From Bacteroidota bacterium (GTDB lineage Bacteria > Bacteroidota > Ignavibacteria > Kapaibacteriales > DASPKH01), in NCBI GenBank assembly GCA_040386315.1, contig JAZKFS010000001.1, positions 24,099 to 88,098 of the forward strand: a DNA stretch of 64,000 nt, in the 5' to 3' direction. This document shows positions 51,816 through 61,252 of this stretch, piece after piece (the first letter of the stretch is position 1; every line of letters begins with the position of its first letter). The notes below the pieces were generated by a model, which saw only the letters and a list, made by a program, of their open reading frames with translations, searched no databases and was not told the origin of the DNA. The translations under genes were made by a program, and so were the position numbers.

Positions 51816-54368
51816 TTAGAGCCGCGGATCCACTGGCTCACTCTCTAATGCAAGTACTCCAAAGACACACTCATGGACTCGCCGTAATGGTTCTTTTAAA
51901 ACAAATCTTTCCATTGCCTCCACACCCAACGCAAATTCCCGCAAAGCAAGCGAGCACTTACCAGAAAGGCCTCGAGAGCGCAACCGTTCGAGATTTTTAG
52001 GGAAATCATATTCAGGCCCATAAATAATCCTCAAATACTCTCTCCCGCGACACTTTACAGCTGGCTGAATTAGGCCTCGTTTTCCTCGTGCTATAAAATC
52101 CAGAGGTTTGACGACAGCTCCCTCGCCTCCTGCATTCGTCATAGATTCCCACCACATGATTGCATCAGCAACGGTTTCTTCTTTTTCAAAATCCACAATT
52201 TTAAAAGCAGTTTTAAAAAAGAATTCCGCGTCTGTTGAGCACAATTGCGCGATAGTCTCCATGTGCCAGAGGTGGTTTTTGTCCGTGTGAACAGTGCCTT
52301 CCGTTGCCAGAATGTGAAATGGCGCAAGTCTTATCCCTTTTAAAGAATCCACAGGCCAGCAGTAATTGCGATAGGATTTTGTGTAATCCTCCACAGCTTC
52401 CTGTCTGTTTTTAAAATGTGCTGAAAGCTCGCCAACGTCCAGCCCGTTTTCCAACGCCGTTTTTAAAACGCTGTTTGCAGCTTCGAGCGAATGTTTTGCG
52501 GCAGCACCGACGGTGGCATACTGCGTTTTTAAAAGCTCCTGCGCTTTGGCTGACCACGGCAGAAGCTCGCAGTCGAGGCAAATCCAGTCTGTTTTTAAAA
52601 CGTCCCACAGCCCGGACGTTTCCATTCCGTCAGTAACCTTTTTTAAAAACTCCTTTTCAAGATTTTTCTCGGTAAAAAACGGCCTTCCAGTCCGAGTATA
52701 GCATACTCCAATTTCATCTCCATTAATACCAAATCGTTTTTTAGCGGAGGCATTATCACGACATACGATCACAACAGCACGAGAACCCATATGTTTTTCC
52801 TCGCATATCACTGAAGGTACTCCCTCTTTCCGATAATAGGCAAGTGCTTCCTCAATATGCTCAAGATAATCCTCTCGCTTACTGGTTTCACTCGGTGACA
52901 TTGTTGGTGGAAGATACATGAGCCATTTGGGATTCACTGCAAAACGACTCATAAGCTCAAGAGCTGCAATAGAATTTTCTTCCCTGATCGTAACTGTATG
53001 ATGCAGTTTCGTGGGAATAATTCGTTTTCCTGAGATGTCGGACAAATCCAGAATGTCGTCTGCCTCAAAGGGAGTCGTTCCTGCTTGCAGCTGGTCATAC
53101 CCAATCGGTTTTGATGGTATGGCATATTGATTTTTAGCCTGAACATGAACAATTTCACGCTCAGGGTACCGAAGCGCGGAAAGCTTTCCGCCGAACACAC
53201 ATCCAGTATCAATATTCATCGTATTGTTGAGCCACACAGCTTCAGGGACTGGAGTATGTCCATAGACTACCATCGACTTTCCACGATATTCCGCTGCCCA
53301 GTTCAACCGTACTGGAAGCCCAAATTCATCCGTTTCTCCTGTCGTTTCGCCAAAAAGAGCAAAATCACGAACCTTCGCTGAGCCTCTTCCCTGCAATTCC
53401 TCTTTTATTCCTGCATGAGCTACAACGAGTTTTTCATTATCGAGGACATAATGACTAATAAGCCCATCAATGAACTTTGCAACCCTCTCAGAAAATTCTT
53501 TTGGCCGTTGCTCAAGCTGCTCCAAAGATTCAGCCAGTCCATGGGCAATCTTGACATTCCGCCCTGTTAGTTTTTTCATGAGCTTAATATCATGGTTACC
53601 TGGCACGCACAAAGCTATGCCAGACGAGACTGAGTTCATAACCAGTTCCAGGACTTCCGGTGTTTTCGGTCCACGATCTACAAGGTCACCCAGGAAGATG
53701 ATTTTCCTGCCGTGTGTCGCTGTAATATCCGGTCCGTTATCAGTATCTATGACCTTGTAATCAAGCTTCGTCAGTAATTCCACCAATTCATCATAGCAGC
53801 CATGAATATCACCGATAATATCAAACGGGCCATGTTCGTGTGAACGATTATTCCATAGAGGTTTTCGGGTGATTTGCACTTTTTCTACGGCTTCCTGTGA
53901 ATCCAGAACATACGTAAAGCGAAAACCCTCCCGCTTTAAAGCTTTAAGTGAACGTCTCAGTTGATGGCGCTGCTGCGGTATAACATGAGAGCCAAAATTC
54001 CTGTCAGAACGCATCGCGTTTCTATCTAGACATACTCTTTCCGGCATATCAAGCACAATTGCTACCAGATGGCAATGATATTGCTGAGCAAGCATAAGCC
54101 ATGATTTTCTGGCTTCCGGCTGCACATTTGTTGCATCAATGACCGTCAGGCGTTTAGCAGAAAGACGCTTTGCAGTTATATACTGCAATACATCAAAAGC
54201 GTCCTTTGTAGCCGCCTGATTATTTTCATCATCCGACACCAGCCCCCGGCAATAGTCCGATGACAGGATTTCAGTCGGTAAGAAATGCTTCCTTGCAAAT
54301 GTTGATTTTCCTGACCCTGAAGCTCCCATAAGCACCACAAGGCAAAATTCCGGTAATTCTATGTTCAT
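51816..54368 (-). CDS. pnkp: Polynucleotide kinase-phosphatase Pnkp (RNA repair): 5'-kinase - metallophosphoesterase - C-terminal adenylyltransferase/ligase-like domain
   Basis: The P-loop is VVLMGASGSGKST. The calcineurin-type phosphatase motifs are GDIHGC, GDLVDRG and GNHD. The C-terminal nucleotidyltransferase motif is I-like (EEKHMGSR, KxxGxR). The protein is 850 aa, and its start overlaps the hen1 stop by 1 nt. Confidence 0.85.
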   Translation of the reverse strand: MNIELPEFCLVVLMGASGSGKSTFARKHFLPTEILSSDYCRGLVSDDENNQAATKDAFDVLQYITAKRLSAKRLTVIDATNVQPEARKSWLMLAQQYHCHLVAIVLDMPERVCLDRNAMRSDRNFGSHVIPQQRHQLRRSLKALKREGFRFTYVLDSQEAVEKVQITRKPLWNNRSHEHGPFDIIGDIHGCYDELVELLTKLDYKVIDTDNGPDITATHGRKIIFLGDLVDRGPKTPEVLELVMNSVSSGIALCVPGNHDIKLMKKLTGRNVKIAHGLAESLEQLEQRPKEFSERVAKFIDGLISHYVLDNEKLVVAHAGIKEELQGRGSAKVRDFALFGETTGETDEFGLPVRLNWAAEYRGKSMVVYGHTPVPEAVWLNNTMNIDTGCVFGGKLSALRYPEREIVHVQAKNQYAIPSKPIGYDQLQAGTTPFEADDILDLSDISGKRIIPTKLHHTVTIREENSIAALELMSRFAVNPKWLMYLPPTMSPSETSKREDYLEHIEEALAYYRKEGVPSVICEEKHMGSRAVVIVCRDNASAKKRFGINGDEIGVCYTRTGRPFFTEKNLEKEFLKKVTDGMETSGLWDVLKTDWICLDCELLPWSAKAQELLKTQYATVGAAAKHSLEAANSVLKTALENGLDVGELSAHFKNRQEAVEDYTKSYRNYCWPVDSLKGIRLAPFHILATEGTVHTDKNHLWHMETIAQLCSTDAEFFFKTAFKIVDFEKEETVADAIMWWESMTNAGGEGAVVKPLDFIARGKRGLIQPAVKCRGREYLRIIYGPEYDFPKNLERLRSRGLSGKCSLALREFALGVEAMERFVLKEPLRRVHECVFGVLALESEPVDPRL

Positions 54369-55765
54369 TAATGTATTCTCCTTTTAAAAACAGCCATTTG
54401 TGTCGGCGAGCCCAAATCCTCATTCACTTCACCAACCGTGAAAAAGTCTGCTTCGTAGCCGTATTTCGCTCCAACCTGATGAGCCCACGCCTGAAACTGC
54501 TGACGCGTCCATTCAAACCGGTGATCCTTATGCCTGAATTTTCCTGCCGGCAACGTTTCAAAAAGTGCATTATACTCTGCATTTGGAGTCGTAACAATCA
54601 CTATTCCAGGTTTTGAAAATCCGAATACATTGCGCTCAAGAGCCGTTAATCTATCTTCATCTAAATGTTCAATTACTTCAATGATTGTCGCAACATCATA
54701 GCCCTCAAGACGCTTGTCACGATAGACAAGAGACGAGTGCAGAAGCTGTATGCGCTGTCGCTGTTTCTCCGGCAGCATATCTAATCTCAAGCGTTTTGTA
54801 GCAATCTCCAGCGTCCGGTAGGAAACGTCCATTCCTACGATCTCAGTAAATTGTTTATCACCTAGAAGCATTTTTAAAAGATTGCCTTCTCCACAGCCAA
54901 GATCCAAGACTCGAGATGCTCCGGTGCCTTTTACTTGTTCAAATACACTCTGCATCCGTATATCATTGAGCCGTAGCTTTTTCTCTACCTGTTCTTCTTC
55001 CTGTGCATGCTCTTCTTCCTTTTCAGCAATCACCGATTCATCAGGTATTAATCTTTGTAGTGCCTCATTTGCCAGAGCTGCCCTATGTTTCAGATAACGT
55101 TTTGTGATGAGTTCCTTTTCAGGATGTGACGCTAGCCAGCCATCTCCTTTGCGGAGGAGTTTTTCCAACTCACCCGTATCTACCCAGTAATGCTTTTCAT
55201 CATCCAGTACTGGGATAAGTACATAAAGATGATTAAGCATATCCTGAACTCTACACACGCCCCAAATTTGAACATCGAAATACCGGCTGTCACCCCACTC
55301 GGGAAATTTCTCATCCAGGGTGAGGCGTTGAGCCTTTACAGTATAACCAAGTGGTTCAAAGAGATTTTTCAGTACAGTCTCGCCACCCCTGCATGGTAGA
55401 ACCGGTATAGCTACAGTAAGTGGAATCGCTGTTTCAGCAAGCTCCTGCCTGTCCTTGCTTCTGCCGCCCATCGCCGTTCCGAAAACCTGCGCCAGCGCCA
55501 CGCTTAAAAACGACGATGCTGCATACGGCCTGTCATTCACATATTGTTGGAGTGCAAATGCCTGCTCGGATTTTTTCCGCACAAGCCCCACCGGGTCAAC
55601 ATCTATGAGTAACGCCGCTGTGCACCTCTTCTCCGTAGCTTCAGGATAGAAAATATGCGCCTGACCAAAGCTCAAATTTGTTGTTTGAACCCGTGCGGGA
55701 TTTTTATGAAGCAAAAAACCCAGGTCTGTTGCGGGCTGATGCGTTGTTGTTATTGTAAGAAGCAT
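54368..55765 (-). CDS. hen1: 3'-terminal RNA ribose 2'-O-methyltransferase Hen1 (bacterial)
   Basis: The protein is 465 aa with the N-terminus MLLTITTTHQPATDLGFLLHKNP. The C-terminal SAM-MTase motif is VLDLGCGEGNLLKML. It is translationally coupled to pnkp. Confidence 0.8.
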   Translation of the reverse strand: MLLTITTTHQPATDLGFLLHKNPARVQTTNLSFGQAHIFYPEATEKRCTAALLIDVDPVGLVRKKSEQAFALQQYVNDRPYAASSFLSVALAQVFGTAMGGRSKDRQELAETAIPLTVAIPVLPCRGGETVLKNLFEPLGYTVKAQRLTLDEKFPEWGDSRYFDVQIWGVCRVQDMLNHLYVLIPVLDDEKHYWVDTGELEKLLRKGDGWLASHPEKELITKRYLKHRAALANEALQRLIPDESVIAEKEEEHAQEEEQVEKKLRLNDIRMQSVFEQVKGTGASRVLDLGCGEGNLLKMLLGDKQFTEIVGMDVSYRTLEIATKRLRLDMLPEKQRQRIQLLHSSLVYRDKRLEGYDVATIIEVIEHLDEDRLTALERNVFGFSKPGIVIVTTPNAEYNALFETLPAGKFRHKDHRFEWTRQQFQAWAHQVGAKYGYEADFFTVGEVNEDLGSPTQMAVFKRRIH

Positions 55766-55809
55766 ATGTGATTCAGCTTTTAAAAAGCGTTTTTATGTTT
55801 TTAAAAAAT

Positions 55810-57186
<1,377 letters not shown>

Positions 57187-57198
57187 TTAAAAGTAATT

Positions 57199-58143
57199 TT
57201 ACAAATCCAGCACTTGAAATTCCGAAATCCTAAATTCCTTTCTTTTTACAAGTTTTGGTTCTTTTAAAAGAAATTCCGGCTTTTCCTTCGTGCTTTTAAA
57301 ACAAAACCTGCGCGGCAAATCTGTATAAATTGAGCGAGGCGGCTTTTTATAACTAATGTCTTTTAAACGATTCCCGCTTTCATATTCATGGTAAAAAATC
57401 CTGCGGATTCCCATTTCCTCGCGGATAAACCACAGCGCAGCGGCCAGCATCGCCTCATCCCAAATCTTCACATGCGGTTTTAAAACGTCTTCTACATACG
57501 TGTGCAGATTTCCCGAATTTACACGATTGCGATGTGTCAGCTGACGCACACGAACACGATTATCGTCGAGTGATTCCACCACTTCCACCGTTGTGCTTCT
57601 ACGCAGTGCCACACGAATCCAGTCATTTTGGATTTCCTCTATCAACGCCTCGCCCGTCGTCAGGTCGAGGTCAATCCGTGCCCACGCCATCGTGCGCCGT
57701 TCACCACCTGCAATCGGATGGCATGAATATTCAAACGGATGGTAATCTTTCGGCTTTATCATCGAAGTATAAGCGCGATTGTGTCCGGCATTGAAATTCA
57801 TTTGCAGAACGATATTCAATCCCGCGCGCGTTTTTTGAGCACCCCATTGTAAGCCGCGTCCCCATTGACCAACTGTCAACGTGTACGATTCAAAGCTCTC
57901 CGGCCACTTCATTTCAAAAAGCTCTGGATAAAGCATTCCGTCCGGTGCCAAAGCAATCAGCTCCCGAACGTCTTTCTTCTCCAGCAAACCTTTAAAAGGC
58001 GTGGCCTTAATATCGCGCACATGTTTGCGCTCTTTCGTCAGATATTGCAAAATCTGGCGCGCGTATTTATCCCGAAAATAATAGAATACCGTCCGCCCCG
58101 GCGTCAGGCACTCGATAATTTCCCTGTATTCTTTTTCTGTCAT
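57199..58143 (-). CDS. Hypothetical protein (314 aa) embedded in the RNA-repair cluster
   Basis: The ORF is uninterrupted and co-oriented with the cluster, 25 bp upstream of the rtcB-like gene. No motif was recognised. Confidence 0.4.
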   Translation of the reverse strand: MTEKEYREIIECLTPGRTVFYYFRDKYARQILQYLTKERKHVRDIKATPFKGLLEKKDVRELIALAPDGMLYPELFEMKWPESFESYTLTVGQWGRGLQWGAQKTRAGLNIVLQMNFNAGHNRAYTSMIKPKDYHPFEYSCHPIAGGERRTMAWARIDLDLTTGEALIEEIQNDWIRVALRRSTTVEVVESLDDNRVRVRQLTHRNRVNSGNLHTYVEDVLKPHVKIWDEAMLAAALWFIREEMGIRRIFYHEYESGNRLKDISYKKPPRSIYTDLPRRFCFKSTKEKPEFLLKEPKLVKRKEFRISEFQVLDL

Positions 58144-58542
58144 AAAAATAGATTATTCTGTCGTTTTTAAAAGTTATTTTTTTCACATTTCCGCAGCTAA
58201 TCCGCGGTTTTAAAAGTTTGTTTGTCCCGCTACCGGGCAGATAATTTTGTCTTAGAATTGTCATTGGATGTTTCCTCCGTTTTGGATTTTTAAAAGAAAA
58301 ACCCGCTCCTGCACGAAGCAAAAGCGGGTTTTAAAAGTTGAAAATTTTAAAAACACTACCTTCGCTTCAGACACAATACACCACGCCCATCCCGCTTTTG
58401 CAGCAGATTTATCGCGTGGCTATATTGTTCAATAAAGGAGCGCATTGTTTTTAAAAGTAATTGCTTATAAAAAAAGTAATAATTCATTGTACCTGCCGAA
58501 AACAGGTTTCCCGCAGGTACAATTTTTAAAAGCCTAGCGAAC

Positions 58543-59976
58543 TCAGTTTTTAAAAGAAACCGAGCTAATTTTCTCAATCATCGAAGCTTTATCTGTTTCC
58601 ATCAGCTTCATGATGTCGAAAATTTTATCTGAAAATCCGGCCGTGCAGAATACTTTGTTTTGAGGCAATTGCAGTGTTCCATAGCCTTGCAGATCAAATG
58701 AATAGACAAACGGGTCAGCGCCAGTACGGCGTTTGTACGCTGTGAATTCGTTTGCCGGAGTGTCATTGCCAATCCAGCCCTGCATGTCTGACAAGATGAT
58801 GATGCGGTCGTATTTTCTTTTCGCCTTTTGAAAGATCGCGTGGAAGTTTGTACCTCCCATCGCAAATTTTATCGAACGCGCAATCGTTATTGTGCTGTCG
58901 CCAATATTCACGTTTTTGTAGGCCGCATCATCGGAAAATGTCATAAAATCAGCATTGTTGGATTTCACCAGGATTGCCGAAAACAGCGAACCGATTTCAG
59001 CCGGTTTTCCCGCCATCGAACCCGAAACATCCAGTACAACAAGCGTTTCGCCATCGAACTTCGGAACGTTATTCAGTGAAATGTCAACCGCCGTATTCAG
59101 CGCTTGCAGCACCTCGCGAACAACTTTCCCGCTGTCCATTTTTAAAACTTCCTCGTACGCCGTTGTAAAGCGGAACGGCAGAACAAGTGATTTTTTAATC
59201 AGGCGCTCGTTCGTCAGCATTTCCAGAGCTTCGCCGATGACGTCAGGTGCCTGCGTAATGATATTGCGCAAGTTTCGCAAAAGTGCAAAGTAGCCGATTT
59301 TTCGCGAGCGAATCAGCTCCGTCCACGCTTCGTTTTTAAAAACGGCTTTTTGCTCGTCGTTTTCAGCTGTTTGTCCGGTTTTTGTCAGCGCGGATTCCCA
59401 TGTACCTGTTGAGCGAAGTTCATCTTTAATCAATGCCGAAATTGCTTCAGCATTTTTCTCAACCGGCACCGGGTGAACCAGATTCACAACATCTACAAGT
59501 TTAAAATCTTTAGATGCCGCACGGTATTTACCCAGCTGGTAGCTATCGAAACGTTCGAATGCTTTTGCAAAACCTTTTTTCATTGAGTTCGGCACTTTAC
59601 CGTTCGTCGCTGTGTGGTATGCCAGGATTTCCATCATGTCATCCGGACGGAATACAACCGCGCTGTAAAAATCCTTCGCCCACACCTGTCCGCCGATGTG
59701 CTTTGCCAGCTCTGAAGCGACCACATGCGAAATCGTACGCATACCAAATTCCGTTCGCGCAAAAATGGCTGCCTTCGCGACGAACTCCTTGTCGCAGAGT
59801 GCGATGAGATTTTTCAATCGCTCTAAGCCGTCATGCTGGCTTCTGTAAAACTGGTCTTTCACGAACGACGTGACCAGCATCGAAACCAGTTCGAGTTCAG
59901 GCGACTGCTTGTACGCATCACCGCCCGCGAAGTTTTTGACTTTTGCCAAAGCTGTTGAAAAATTAAATCGTGCCAT
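58543..59976 (-). CDS. rsr: Ro60-related protein Rsr (TROVE domain + C-terminal vWA domain)
   Basis: It has a TROVE-like N-terminal region and a C-terminal vWA domain with the MIDAS motif LVVLDVSGSM. It sits immediately downstream of the tRNA-like ncRNA array. Two terminator hairpins follow the gene (58488-58525, 58290-58330). Confidence 0.65.
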   Translation of the reverse strand: MARFNFSTALAKVKNFAGGDAYKQSPELELVSMLVTSFVKDQFYRSQHDGLERLKNLIALCDKEFVAKAAIFARTEFGMRTISHVVASELAKHIGGQVWAKDFYSAVVFRPDDMMEILAYHTATNGKVPNSMKKGFAKAFERFDSYQLGKYRAASKDFKLVDVVNLVHPVPVEKNAEAISALIKDELRSTGTWESALTKTGQTAENDEQKAVFKNEAWTELIRSRKIGYFALLRNLRNIITQAPDVIGEALEMLTNERLIKKSLVLPFRFTTAYEEVLKMDSGKVVREVLQALNTAVDISLNNVPKFDGETLVVLDVSGSMAGKPAEIGSLFSAILVKSNNADFMTFSDDAAYKNVNIGDSTITIARSIKFAMGGTNFHAIFQKAKRKYDRIIILSDMQGWIGNDTPANEFTAYKRRTGADPFVYSFDLQGYGTLQLPQNKVFCTAGFSDKIFDIMKLMETDKASMIEKISSVSFKN

Positions 59977-60037
59977 TATGCACCTCCTCTAAAAAATATG
60001 GAAACATGGCTTTTTAAAAAGCCGGGGAATCAAAAAA

Positions 60038-60112
60038 ACGGCAGAGAAAACTGCGGGAGTTCTACTGGGCGATTTAGCAAATCGAAGTAACTCAAAGCCG
60101 CATCACTACTGC
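60038..60112 (-). ncRNA. Y-RNA-like repeat unit A (short form, lacks a tRNA-like module)
   Basis: It shares the unit ends (GGCAGAGAAAA ... CACTACTGC) and the internal CGAAGTAACTC motif with units C-F. Confidence 0.35.
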
Positions 60113-60138
60113 TTTTAAAAAGACAATTTTAAAAATAA

Positions 60139-60222
60139 GAGGCAGAGAAAATTCGCGTGGAATTTAGGGCGAATTAAAAGTTCGCTGCTTTAAAGCGATG
60201 TATTCCGCGTGTCGCTACTGCC
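60139..60222 (-). ncRNA. Y-RNA-like repeat unit B (short form)
   Basis: It has the same terminal motifs (GAGGCAGAGAAA ... CGCTACTGCC) with complementary ends. Confidence 0.35.
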
Positions 60223-60235
60223 TTTTTAAAATAAA

Positions 60236-60362
60236 TGACGGAGAAAATGGGGTAAGGCTGTGCTTTACCAATTTAGCTACCAACGGAGTTTTAAAACCCC
60301 GATGGACTGGACTCGAACCAGCAATGACTTACGTCGAAGTAACTCACCTTTCACTACCGTCA
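60236..60362 (-). ncRNA. Y-RNA-like (YrlA-type, tRNA-mimic) unit C
   Basis: The minus strand reads GACGGTAG..GAGTTACTTCG..CTGGTTCGAGTCCAG-TCCATCGG..CCGTTGG-TA-GCTAAATTGGTAAAGC..CTCCGTCA. That is T-arm, then 3' acceptor strand, then a short linker, then 5' acceptor strand plus D-arm. The acceptor strands are complementary (6/7), and the unit ends pair (GACGG/CCGTC). Confidence 0.45.
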
Positions 60363-60392
60363 AACTTTTAAAAATGAAAGAACAAAAAATAA

Positions 60393-60532
60393 AGAGGCAG
60401 AGAAAGTTTATGTAGGACTTTTTCGTTGCTCTACCAACTGAGCTATATTCAGAATTTTAAAATCTGAACAGCCGGACTCGAACCGGCGACCCACGGCACC
60501 CTAAGCGAAGTAACCCACATATCGCTACTGCC
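60393..60532 (-). ncRNA. Y-RNA-like (tRNA-mimic) unit D
   Basis: The T-arm is GCCGGTTCGAGTCCGGC. The 3' acceptor strand TGTTCAG pairs with the downstream CTGAATA, which is followed by TA-GCTCAGTTGGTAGAGC (D-arm). Confidence 0.45.
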
Positions 60533-60547
60533 TTTAAAAAAACAAAA

Positions 60548-60692
60548 TGACGGAGAAAATCTGAGTGAGTAAGCTGCTCTACCAACTGAGCTACATCCCC
60601 ATTTTTAAAAACTTAAATCAGAGGAGATGGCGGGACTCGAACCCGCGACAGGCCGCGTGATAAGCGAAGTAACCCACTCGTCGCTACCGTCA
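60548..60692 (-). ncRNA. Y-RNA-like (tRNA-mimic) unit E
   Basis: The T-arm is GCGGGTTCGAGTCCCGC. The 3' acceptor strand CATCTCC pairs (with one G.U) with the downstream GGGGATG, which is followed by TA-GCTCAGTTGGTAGAGC. The unit ends are TGACGG/CCGTCA. Confidence 0.45.
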
Positions 60693-60703
60693 AAAAAATA
60701 CGT

Positions 60704-60833
60704 GATGGAGAAAGTTTACAGGAGTTGTTAGGCGAAACGCTCTAACCTTTGAGCTATATTCCGTTAGCTGGAACAGCCGGACTTGAACCGGCAACGTTTT
60801 CGTACGAAGTAACTCGCCGTATCACTACCATCA
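60704..60833 (-). ncRNA. Y-RNA-like (tRNA-mimic) unit F
   Basis: The T-arm is GCCGGTTCAAGTCCGGC. The 3' acceptor strand TGTTCC pairs with GGAATA, which is followed by TA-GCTCAAAGGTTAGAGC. The unit ends are GTGATGG/CCATCAC. Confidence 0.45.
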
Positions 60834-61252
60834 CATTTTCCAAAGAACATTTTTAAAAGCAAAAAACCCACCTTCGCGAATCTTGCAAAGGTGGGTTTTC
60901 AAAAAGATGAAACCGCTCTATATGTATTGCTACACTACCTCTGCTTTAGACAAAACCCTTCCTGACTGCCAAGCATATGCTTGCGGTCTATCACGGGATT
61001 ATATGTTGCTAAAGTGAGGCGCATTGTTTTTAAAAGTAATTATCGTCGTGTTTGTAAAATTGAGTTGCAAACCTACAAAGGTTTTTTACAAAGTCAAATT
61101 AATTTTTTGTCATAATGCAAATAATTATAAGACTTCACATCGGTAAGTTTTACATTGTGATGCTAAAGAAGTATTTAAATTTGATATTTCTCTGGTCTAA
61201 TACAGGTCTACTGGTTCAAGAAATCCCTTAAATTTACCAGATTTCACCACAT

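Follow-up and report, generated by a model that had tools for sequence, protein, structure and literature searches.

An unannotated family with a predicted GNAT-like fold recurs beside divergent RtcB RNA ligases: a candidate accessory factor of bacterial RNA repair

The DNA analyzed here (the window; 64,000 nucleotides (nt) of contig JAZKFS010000001.1 from a Bacteroidota bacterium, with all positions numbered within it) contains an open reading frame (ORF) at 57199..58143, and its protein product, hereafter X, represents a large family without annotation. We found that genes of this family reside beside highly divergent types of the RNA ligase RtcB in many phyla, and that the predicted fold of X resembles that of GNAT (acyl-CoA N-acyltransferase) enzymes. 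The explanation that we favor, with a probability of roughly 55%, is that X is an accessory factor of the RtcB pathway that acts on translation RNAs or ribosomes. The RNA-repair systems concerned are known; what is new is X itself, a recurrent and previously unrecognized component and a branch of the GNAT fold that has diverged far. The repair of tRNAs and ribosomes by RtcB is well established, and the bacterial accessory factors are mostly unknown save for PrfH, RtcA, and RlaP.

The X gene, its family, and its linkage to RtcB

The gene under study is:
57199..58143, minus strand: X, ATG start, 314 amino acids (aa), member of a basic family with a predicted GNAT fold and no annotation

X is a real gene under purifying selection and not a chance ORF, because its homologs share the start position and its differences from the closest ortholog are mostly synonymous. 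The start codon is backed by its placement in the same alignment column in all 39 aligned homologs. In comparison with the 93%-identical ortholog in the closest ortholog locus (L002; DASPKH010000453.1), X has 75 synonymous and 21 non-synonymous codon differences, a ratio similar to those of the neighboring genes for RtcB (100:26) and the Ro60-like protein Rsr (115:43). The coordinates and length given in the initial annotation, which was made from the sequence of the window, are exact, and X does have the same orientation as the RNA-repair genes Rsr, RtcB, Hen1, and Pnkp (all minus strand). The adjacency to rtcB reported there also stands; the distance of 25 bp does not, as the gap comprises 24 nt (57175-57198).

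X had no match in Pfam, NCBIfam, PHROGs, or PDB sequences with either sequence or profile queries, and its match in PADLOC was at chance level (E = 0.045). At E ≤ 1, no Pfam match was obtained for X or for any of 39 homologs. A word-indexed search found 628 homologs with 40-51% identity, all of which are unnamed or 'hypothetical', lack Pfam domains, and have lengths of about 305-345 aa. When 1.84 billion representatives were searched with a HMMER profile, 854 X clusters (defined at 50% identity) were obtained at E ≤ 1e-3, including 485 at E ≤ 1e-30. Nearly all of the 854 are 305-335 aa long and share one architecture; one subgroup departs from it by carrying a conserved N-terminal extension of ~80 aa, which is very basic and has the pattern M-x-Y...KGGxGG(R/K)LG(R/H)SNMSH followed by an acidic stretch and then a lysine-rich stretch. 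We found no publication in the literature that names or describes this family, which could stand unnamed in the 2016 survey of RNA-repair neighborhoods by Burroughs and Aravind; RNA-repair systems in that survey reportedly include scaffold or cofactor proteins (Ro/TROVE, Band-7).

Among 40 aligned members, 38 columns are invariant, although identity between the sequences is just 40-50%. The invariant polar residues are Y22, Y27, Q103, R106, N116, H121, H142, T151, R156, D158, E169, E170, Q172, D174, Y216, H252, K261, S271, and Y273, and such polar-rich invariance in a sequence alignment is what enzymes or sites for a specific ligand typically show. The proteins have a basic character (median isoelectric point 9.4, net charge +11), with an acidic conserved hairpin at residues 151-175 (net charge -5.3).

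The hosts include Gamma-, Alpha-, and Betaproteobacteria, Desulfobacterota, Bacteroidota and relatives, Verrucomicrobiota, Planctomycetota, Chloroflexota, one cyanobacterium, and others. Cultured hosts are Desulfogranum japonicum DSM 18378 (with the order rtcB-prfH-X), Pelagicoccus mobilis KCTC 13126, Biformimicrobium ophioploci NKW57, Chitinimonas viridis CECT 7703, and Desulfatibacillum species. An origin of X from mobile elements was considered and rejected, as searches of PLSDB plasmids, INPHARED phages, and IMG/VR contigs turned up no homologs.

Genomic context was compared in a scan with one genome per species, in which 80 loci were kept from 472 relatives (81 loci when the window is included). 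RtcB was counted by two methods of unequal sensitivity. With tblastn searches using the window proteins, an RtcB homolog was found somewhere in the fetched locus in ~40 of the 80; clustering of neighbors combined with hidden Markov models placed RtcB no more than 3 kb from X in 35 of the 80 (24 of the 56 loci whose flanks extend 3 kb or more on each side) and no more than 300 nt from it in 24 of the 80. Only one further locus has RtcB at 3-10 kb, which provides an internal control for the enrichment. In every case of linkage, RtcB and X share a strand, with RtcB upstream in 29 loci and downstream in six. These ligases form five clusters with <40% identity to each other, are found in both gene orders relative to X, and include a canonical 398-aa type, a 469-aa type, a PrfH-linked type, and that of the window. 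Subclades of X follow genomic context, and linkage to RtcB is found in more than 10 of them and in many phyla. The X-RtcB neighborhood is non-random, and X shows the recurrent same-strand adjacency to different RtcB subtypes in distant lineages that characterizes RtcB-associated accessory genes of RNA-repair operons.

The initial annotation had linked X to RNA repair through guilt by association, and for RtcB these counts bear it out. It would have set the gene aside had X matched a housekeeping family or been missing from other such loci; no such match was found, and X occurs at many other rtcB loci. Of the co-occurrence with rsr and rtcB that it proposed to examine, the part concerning rtcB holds and the part concerning rsr was found only at L002. 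Its suggestion of a protein associated with Rsr or Y RNAs does not hold as a general link, since Rsr accompanies X in only two of the 81 loci, the window and L002. Searches of the 80 related loci with tblastn found Rsr, Hen1, and Pnkp near X in L002 only, and YrlA-like RNAs were limited to the window and L002 among nine loci scanned. The link between X and Rsr is lineage-specific.

The loci can be sorted into five architectures:
(i) RtcB2 > PrfH > X: 9 loci
(ii) RbfA-like > RtcB > X > basic protein of 70-95 aa: 11-13 loci
(iii) Band7/SPFH > HNH > RtcB > X, or with X before RtcB
(iv) guaB > rsmB/F-like > X > guaA: Hyphomicrobiales, without RtcB
(v) X stand-alone

In architecture (i), the PrfH neighbor clears the equivalog cut-off of NCBIfam (215.8 > 166.65), the accompanying RtcB clears that of release_rtcB (472.6 > 271.8), and X occupies the third position in a bona fide rtcB2-prfH operon. 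PrfH and RtcB2 rescue and then re-ligate ribosomes cut by colicin E3 (PMC9304027, PMC9223846, PMC13166195). X resembles PrfH in its position directly beside RtcB and in its sporadic distribution across many phyla. Unlike PrfH, it lacks an RF-1 domain and a GGQ motif (a distinction already drawn in the initial annotation), has another fold, and also accompanies RtcB types without PrfH. Recurrent neighbors across the loci are RbfA-like proteins (11 loci), Band7/SPFH proteins (14), HNH proteins (10), and the small basic protein (13).

Arrays of 10-29 tRNA genes on the X strand were found in 10 loci, mostly just upstream of X and mostly in architecture (iii), with the usual order tRNA array > Band7 > HNH > RtcB > X. 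Their positions within the respective loci are:
L012: 2618-7932
L019: 4456-9339
L041: 1855-6961
L060: 214-5336
L063: 3428-9318
L074: 1558-6954
L009: 4901-8031
L057: 66-3680
L073: 55-1602
L062: 4-3734

An eleventh locus (L068) has five tRNA genes, four of them on the X strand, and several further loci have one to four tRNA genes directly upstream of X. These arrays resemble the horizontally transferred long tRNA arrays (L-arrays), whose expression is induced under translational stress and is coordinated with that of a linked HNH endonuclease and a linked rtcB; hypothetical neighbors of the L-arrays were left unnamed (PMC8421152). In Anabaena, the translational-stress regulon of TrcR comprises a tRNA array, rtcB, slipin and HNH genes, and annotated GNAT acetyltransferases (PMC10272220, Table 1). 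Taken together, the presence of X beside five RtcB types, in PrfH-RtcB2 operons, and at the ends of tRNA-array islands points to a missing step or a specificity factor, and X ties together Ro/Y-RNA systems, ribosome rescue and repair, and stress-induced supernumerary tRNA arrays.

Predicted fold and comparison with GNAT enzymes

The AlphaFold2 model of X, built from a 40-sequence alignment, has a mean predicted local distance difference test score of 90.7 and a predicted template-modeling score of 0.91. It contains a mixed beta-sheet with elements in the GNAT core order (beta1-alpha1-alpha2-beta2-beta3-beta4-alpha3-beta5-alpha4-beta6), and the predicted fold is GNAT-like, comprising a single domain with large insertions. 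A structure search, which the initial annotation had recommended, was conducted with Foldseek against PDB and BFVD; it listed mostly GNATs, without a significant match. Structural matches that point to the GNAT fold include RimI, RimJ, RimL, and aminoglycoside and streptothricin-type acetyltransferases. The initial statement that X has no recognizable motif is correct for the sequence, which matches no family, and needs revision for the structure, in which a GNAT-like fold is predicted without the acetyl-CoA signature.

The best whole-model Foldseek match is a 1008-aa unnamed viral protein in BFVD (A0A516LVQ9_1; 286 columns, 16% identity, E = 2e-3, probability 1.0), which may contain an X-like domain. 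Despite this structural match, no sequence relatives were found in IMG/VR.

By the order of secondary-structure elements, E169/E170/Q172/D174 (strand end), H252 (end of strand 248-252), and K261 (next helix) appear to occupy GNAT catalytic positions. X may be an enzyme, because a dense cluster of invariant polar residues is predicted at the GNAT active-site position. In the model, strand 165-172 (ALIEEIQ) is followed two residues on by a helix that starts at 174, and this junction reads Q172-(N/S/T)-D174-W175-x-R177 in the family (Q-N-D-W-I-R in X). With the strand placed by secondary-structure order, the motif A loop Q/R-x-x-G-x-G/A, which binds the acetyl-CoA pyrophosphate between beta4 and alpha3, was not found in X. 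The family lacks a conserved GxG/A throughout, and G108 and G257 are its sole invariant glycines. Canonical use of acetyl-CoA is probably absent in X, because this glycine loop is missing from the model.

Several other family assignments were compared. An archease should have a PF01951 match, the archease fold, and ~140 aa, and X has no Pfam or NCBIfam match, a GNAT-like predicted fold, and twice the size at 314 aa. X matches neither the FemAB nor the Leu_Phe_trans Pfam family, nor is a FemXAB or L/F-transferase protein its closest structural match. The restriction-endonuclease-like alpha-beta-beta-beta-alpha-beta fold with a D...(D/E)xK motif, which defines PD-(D/E)xK nucleases, was not found in the model. 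The D158...E170-x-Q172 arrangement on the beta-hairpin is superficially like the BglII variant of that motif, a likeness that counts in favor of the nuclease explanation discussed below.

These observations bear on an unlikely alternative, namely that X is a conventional acetyl-CoA-dependent GNAT that modifies a ribosomal protein (as do RimI/J/L), RtcB, an RNA base, or a ribosome-targeting antibiotic, and that is merely co-regulated in a translational-stress response. The GNAT-like fold with its structural matches is consistent with this explanation, as are the annotated GNATs beside rtcB, slipin, HNH, and a tRNA array in the TrcR regulon (PMC10272220) and the central-strand Glu with nearby His/Tyr, which resemble GNAT general base/acid residues. 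Acidic and His/Tyr residues at the catalytic positions, as placed by secondary-structure order, are the likeness that X shares with the GNAT superfamily at large (RimI/RimJ/RimL, GCN5, Naa40, and N-acetylglutamate synthase). Unlike these proteins, X has no sequence-level relationship to the superfamily (no Pfam acetyltransferase model matched any of 40 members at E ≤ 1), is about twice the typical GNAT size at 314 aa with ~180 extra residues in insertions, and has a strongly basic surface and a dedicated RNA-repair neighborhood. The segment Q172-N-D174-W175-I-R177, where Q/RxxGxG/A would be expected, runs into the helix without an apparent pyrophosphate loop, and the absence of a conserved GxG/A in the family also argues against conventional acetyl-CoA binding.

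Another parallel may be found among GNAT-fold enzymes that engage tRNA, such as FemX, L/F-transferase, TmcA, Elp3, and TacT-type toxins. For FemX and L/F-transferase, the donor is an aminoacyl-tRNA and not acyl-CoA, so that a canonical acetyl-CoA loop would be unneeded. X shares with these enzymes (including TacT/AtaT) a predicted GNAT-type fold and a tRNA-centered context of tRNA arrays and YrlA RNAs. Unlike them, it has no Pfam match to FemAB, Leu_Phe_trans, or other clan members, and the likeness should be read as a lead.

Possible role of X and alternative explanations

X may bind RNA or ribosomes, because of its basic surface and its genomic context. If X acts as an accessory factor of the RtcB pathway, this surface would bind damaged tRNA, tRNA-like RNA, or a stalled small ribosomal subunit. 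The conserved polar pocket at the GNAT active-site position (E169/E170/Q172/D174, H252, K261, Y216, H121, and H142) would then perform an acyl-transfer-type step on the bound substrate, with a donor or substrate other than conventionally bound acetyl-CoA, and this step would let RtcB seal the break productively. A specific guess for the target is the aminoacyl or peptidyl ester at the tRNA acceptor end; that X acts by acyl transfer at this end is a tentative proposal that we would expect to be wrong more often than right.

A broader claim, which we regard as doubtful, is that X founded a new class of GNAT-fold enzymes with non-canonical use of acetyl-CoA and that it performs an unrecognized chemical step when the translation machinery is repaired. 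If true, X could for example clear the aminoacyl or peptidyl ester of tRNAs in ribotoxin-damaged ribosomes or transfer it to tag the nascent chain. Alternatively, it could acylate the repaired junction against re-cutting and do for RtcB what Hen1 does for Pnkp. Such a class would explain the recruitment of X to PrfH-RtcB2, RbfA-like-RtcB, tRNA-array-Band7-HNH-RtcB, and Rsr-YrlA-RtcB-Hen1-Pnkp systems.

A precedent for the proposed role of X exists in the syntax of RNA-repair operons, since several systems have an enzyme-like accessory gene beside the RNA ligase (PMC12776372, PMC6514570). Proteins accreted around RFH-RtcB include TPR proteins, a Pol-beta nucleotidyltransferase, a ZnR protein, and unknown-domain proteins with charged helices, with no GNAT-like protein named among them (PMC6514570). 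X shares this syntax with Hen1, a protective 2'-O-methylase that is also present in the X operon of the window, and with RlaP, a ligase-associated Pol-beta nucleotidyltransferase. Unlike Hen1 and RlaP, X belongs to an unrelated fold and family and goes with RtcB, a 3'-phosphate ligase; 5'-phosphate ligases accompany it only in the composite operon found in the window.

Several points weigh against the accessory-factor reading. In about half of the X loci, RtcB is missing from the 10 kb on either side of X, which is therefore not obligatorily coupled to a neighboring ligase. The loci without RtcB include the alphaproteobacterial guaB-rsmB/F-X-guaA group and the N-terminally extended subgroup. 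The similarity to GNATs is one of modeled structure only: Pfam Acetyltransf_* and other clan models found no member among the 40 sequences, and hhalign gave X a probability of 0.1% against a RimI-type profile, which was made from a RimI sequence and the sole GNAT among 1,268 neighbor ORFs. The active-site mapping onto GNATs follows the secondary-structure string, not a residue-level superposition, and RNA binding, catalysis, and a physical complex are predictions from context, sequence, and the model.

X could instead be a non-catalytic adaptor or cofactor, a GNAT-fold scaffold comparable to ornithine decarboxylase antizyme or PanZ that binds RtcB and either activates it as archease does, the role suggested in the initial annotation, or recruits it to a substrate such as 30S subunits or tRNA-like RNAs. 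The tight same-strand adjacency to all five RtcB clusters would fit such a partner, and no archease gene was found among the recurrent neighbors of X. However, many invariant polar, acidic, and His residues fit catalysis or metal/ligand binding better than a protein-protein interface, the candidate partners share <40% identity between clusters, and half of the family resides away from any RtcB. The likeness to archease, an RtcB activator of archaea and eukaryotes, is hypothetical and consists of an RtcB-linked accessory position and conserved acidic residues, with no relation in fold or sequence. We consider an adaptor improbable.

The basic character of X and its invariant His/Lys/Tyr/Arg/Glu set, as in metal-independent RNases, would also suit an endoribonuclease or RNA-end trimmer that makes RtcB substrates (2',3'-cyclic phosphate and 5'-OH ends) and forms a cleavage-ligation pair for tRNA, tRNA-like RNA, or rRNA; the polycistronic tRNA and YrlA arrays beside X are potential substrates that need processing. 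This explanation is quite improbable, given that no PADLOC or toxin model matched, that no consistent antitoxin-like partner adjoins X, and that PrfH-RtcB2 handles externally inflicted damage, for which a nuclease of its own would be unneeded. Least probable is that X is unrelated to RNA repair and hitch-hikes on mobile islands: half of the loci lack repair genes, and tRNA L-arrays with their neighbors do spread horizontally (PMC8421152), but the same-strand, short-range linkage to five RtcB clusters in both orders and in more than 10 subclades and many phyla, the translation-related nature of all other recurrent neighbors (PrfH, RbfA-like, RsmB/F, and tRNAs), and the absence of homologs from the plasmid, phage, and viral-contig collections all argue against it.

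The composite cluster in the window and other observations

In the window, the minus-strand order is four YrlA-like RNAs, Rsr, X, RtcB, Hen1, and Pnkp. The features other than X are:
60712-60831, 60544-60693, 60395-60517, and 60232-60363, minus strand: four tandem genes for YrlA-like (tRNA-mimicking) Y RNAs, full-length to Rfam RF02553, upstream of rsr
58543..59976, minus strand: Rsr (Ro60-like; TROVE and vWA), Pfam TROVE E = 4e-18 and vWA_Ro60, weak match to NCBIfam Rsr, 399 nt upstream of X
58298..58455, minus strand: conserved structured RNA element in the Rsr-X spacer, with a long hairpin (58340-58455) and then a terminator-like hairpin (58298-58332)
55810..57174, minus strand: divergent RtcB RNA ligase, 454 aa, Pfam PF01139 (E = 1.3e-33, 117 bits), start 24 nt downstream of X
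54368..55765, minus strand: Hen1 RNA 3'-terminal 2'-O-methyltransferase, NCBIfam TIGR04074 (733.6 bits; cut-off 340) and Pfam Hen1_L
51816..54368, minus strand: Pnkp polynucleotide kinase-phosphatase-ligase, NCBIfam TIGR04075 (1407 bits; cut-off 750) and Pfam PNKP_ligase

This composite cluster (51816-60831, minus strand) joins three modules that usually occur apart from one another: Rsr with Y RNAs, RtcB, and Hen1-Pnkp. Of the 81 X loci, just the window and L002 have this combination, where Rsr-X-RtcB-Hen1-Pnkp have the same order. Protein identity between the two is 91-94% for Rsr, X, and RtcB and 84-86% for Hen1 and Pnkp. L002 is labeled as 'Patescibacteria group bacterium', and the identical window protein (P0001) is labeled as Bacteroidota; these conflicting labels probably reflect a binning error in one of the two metagenome-assembled genome assignments.

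The RtcB of the window matches NCBIfam RtcB models below their cut-off, has an N-terminal extension of ~70 aa, and forms its own sequence cluster with the RtcB of L002; its Pfam score is 117 bits vs. 436 bits for a canonical neighbor-type RtcB. By eye, the catalytic motifs PDAC, GDGNHF, HHGSRG, and HGAGR are apparently present.

The four YrlA-like RNAs score 28-46 bits against RF02553 (E = 8e-8 to 0.015; the gathering score is 69, which none of them reaches), and at least three copies are found at the same place in L002. A terminator-like hairpin lies near the array (60862-60900). The element in the Rsr-X spacer has ~97% identity to L002, vs. 88-90% for the flanking coding DNA, and its predicted fold has a minimum free energy of -41.4 kcal/mol (z = -5.5); the terminator-like hairpin in it came from a terminator scan. 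A 29-codon ORF within it has four non-synonymous changes and one synonymous change relative to L002. The element is a candidate small RNA, second Y-RNA-like element, or attenuator upstream of X.

In 13 gammaproteobacterial loci, the gene directly downstream of X encodes the very basic protein of 70-95 aa (MPRRNR.IRNPVARSPLL(R/K)KGG.H..SKTGQR...). Examples are:
L014: 9292-9528
L015: 10928-11140
L018: 10928-11146
L024: 10926-11150
Proteins concerned: P0066, P0148, P0152, P0163, P0198, P0205

A KGG motif is found both in this protein and in the N-terminal extension fused to a different subgroup of X. Homology between the two was unsupported (hhalign probability 5%), and neither had a Pfam match, including ArfA.

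The calls in the tRNA arrays include a tRNA-SeC in L060 and a tRNA with a 4-base anticodon in L063. The Anabaena hypothetical gene alr0857, which lies beside the HNH gene alr0856 in the TrcR regulon, was considered as an X homolog and was unsupported; with the cyanobacterial X homolog (P0086) as the query, no Nostoc or Anabaena protein was among the best 120 matches.

Response-regulator/HD_5 (HD-GYP-type) genes are also found near X, with 34 copies within 10 kb in 21 of the 80 loci (10 loci within 3 kb). Loci with these genes include L004, L010, L014, L043, L053, L057, L067, L070, L072, L075, and L080. They may be regulators of the X islands or merely abundant in the host genomes.

The 9-mer CTTTTAAAA, which is half of the palindrome CTTTTAAAAG, occurs in 122 copies in the 64 kb vs. 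3.5 expected (maximum of eight in 100 shuffles). The word is over-represented genome-wide, is found in both coding and non-coding DNA, and is very dense at 1-24 kb, with two copies in 24.3-45.8 kb. Seven copies are located within the 399-nt Rsr-X spacer, and minus-strand examples are at 58165, 58208, 58288, 58329, 58449, 58524, and 58548.

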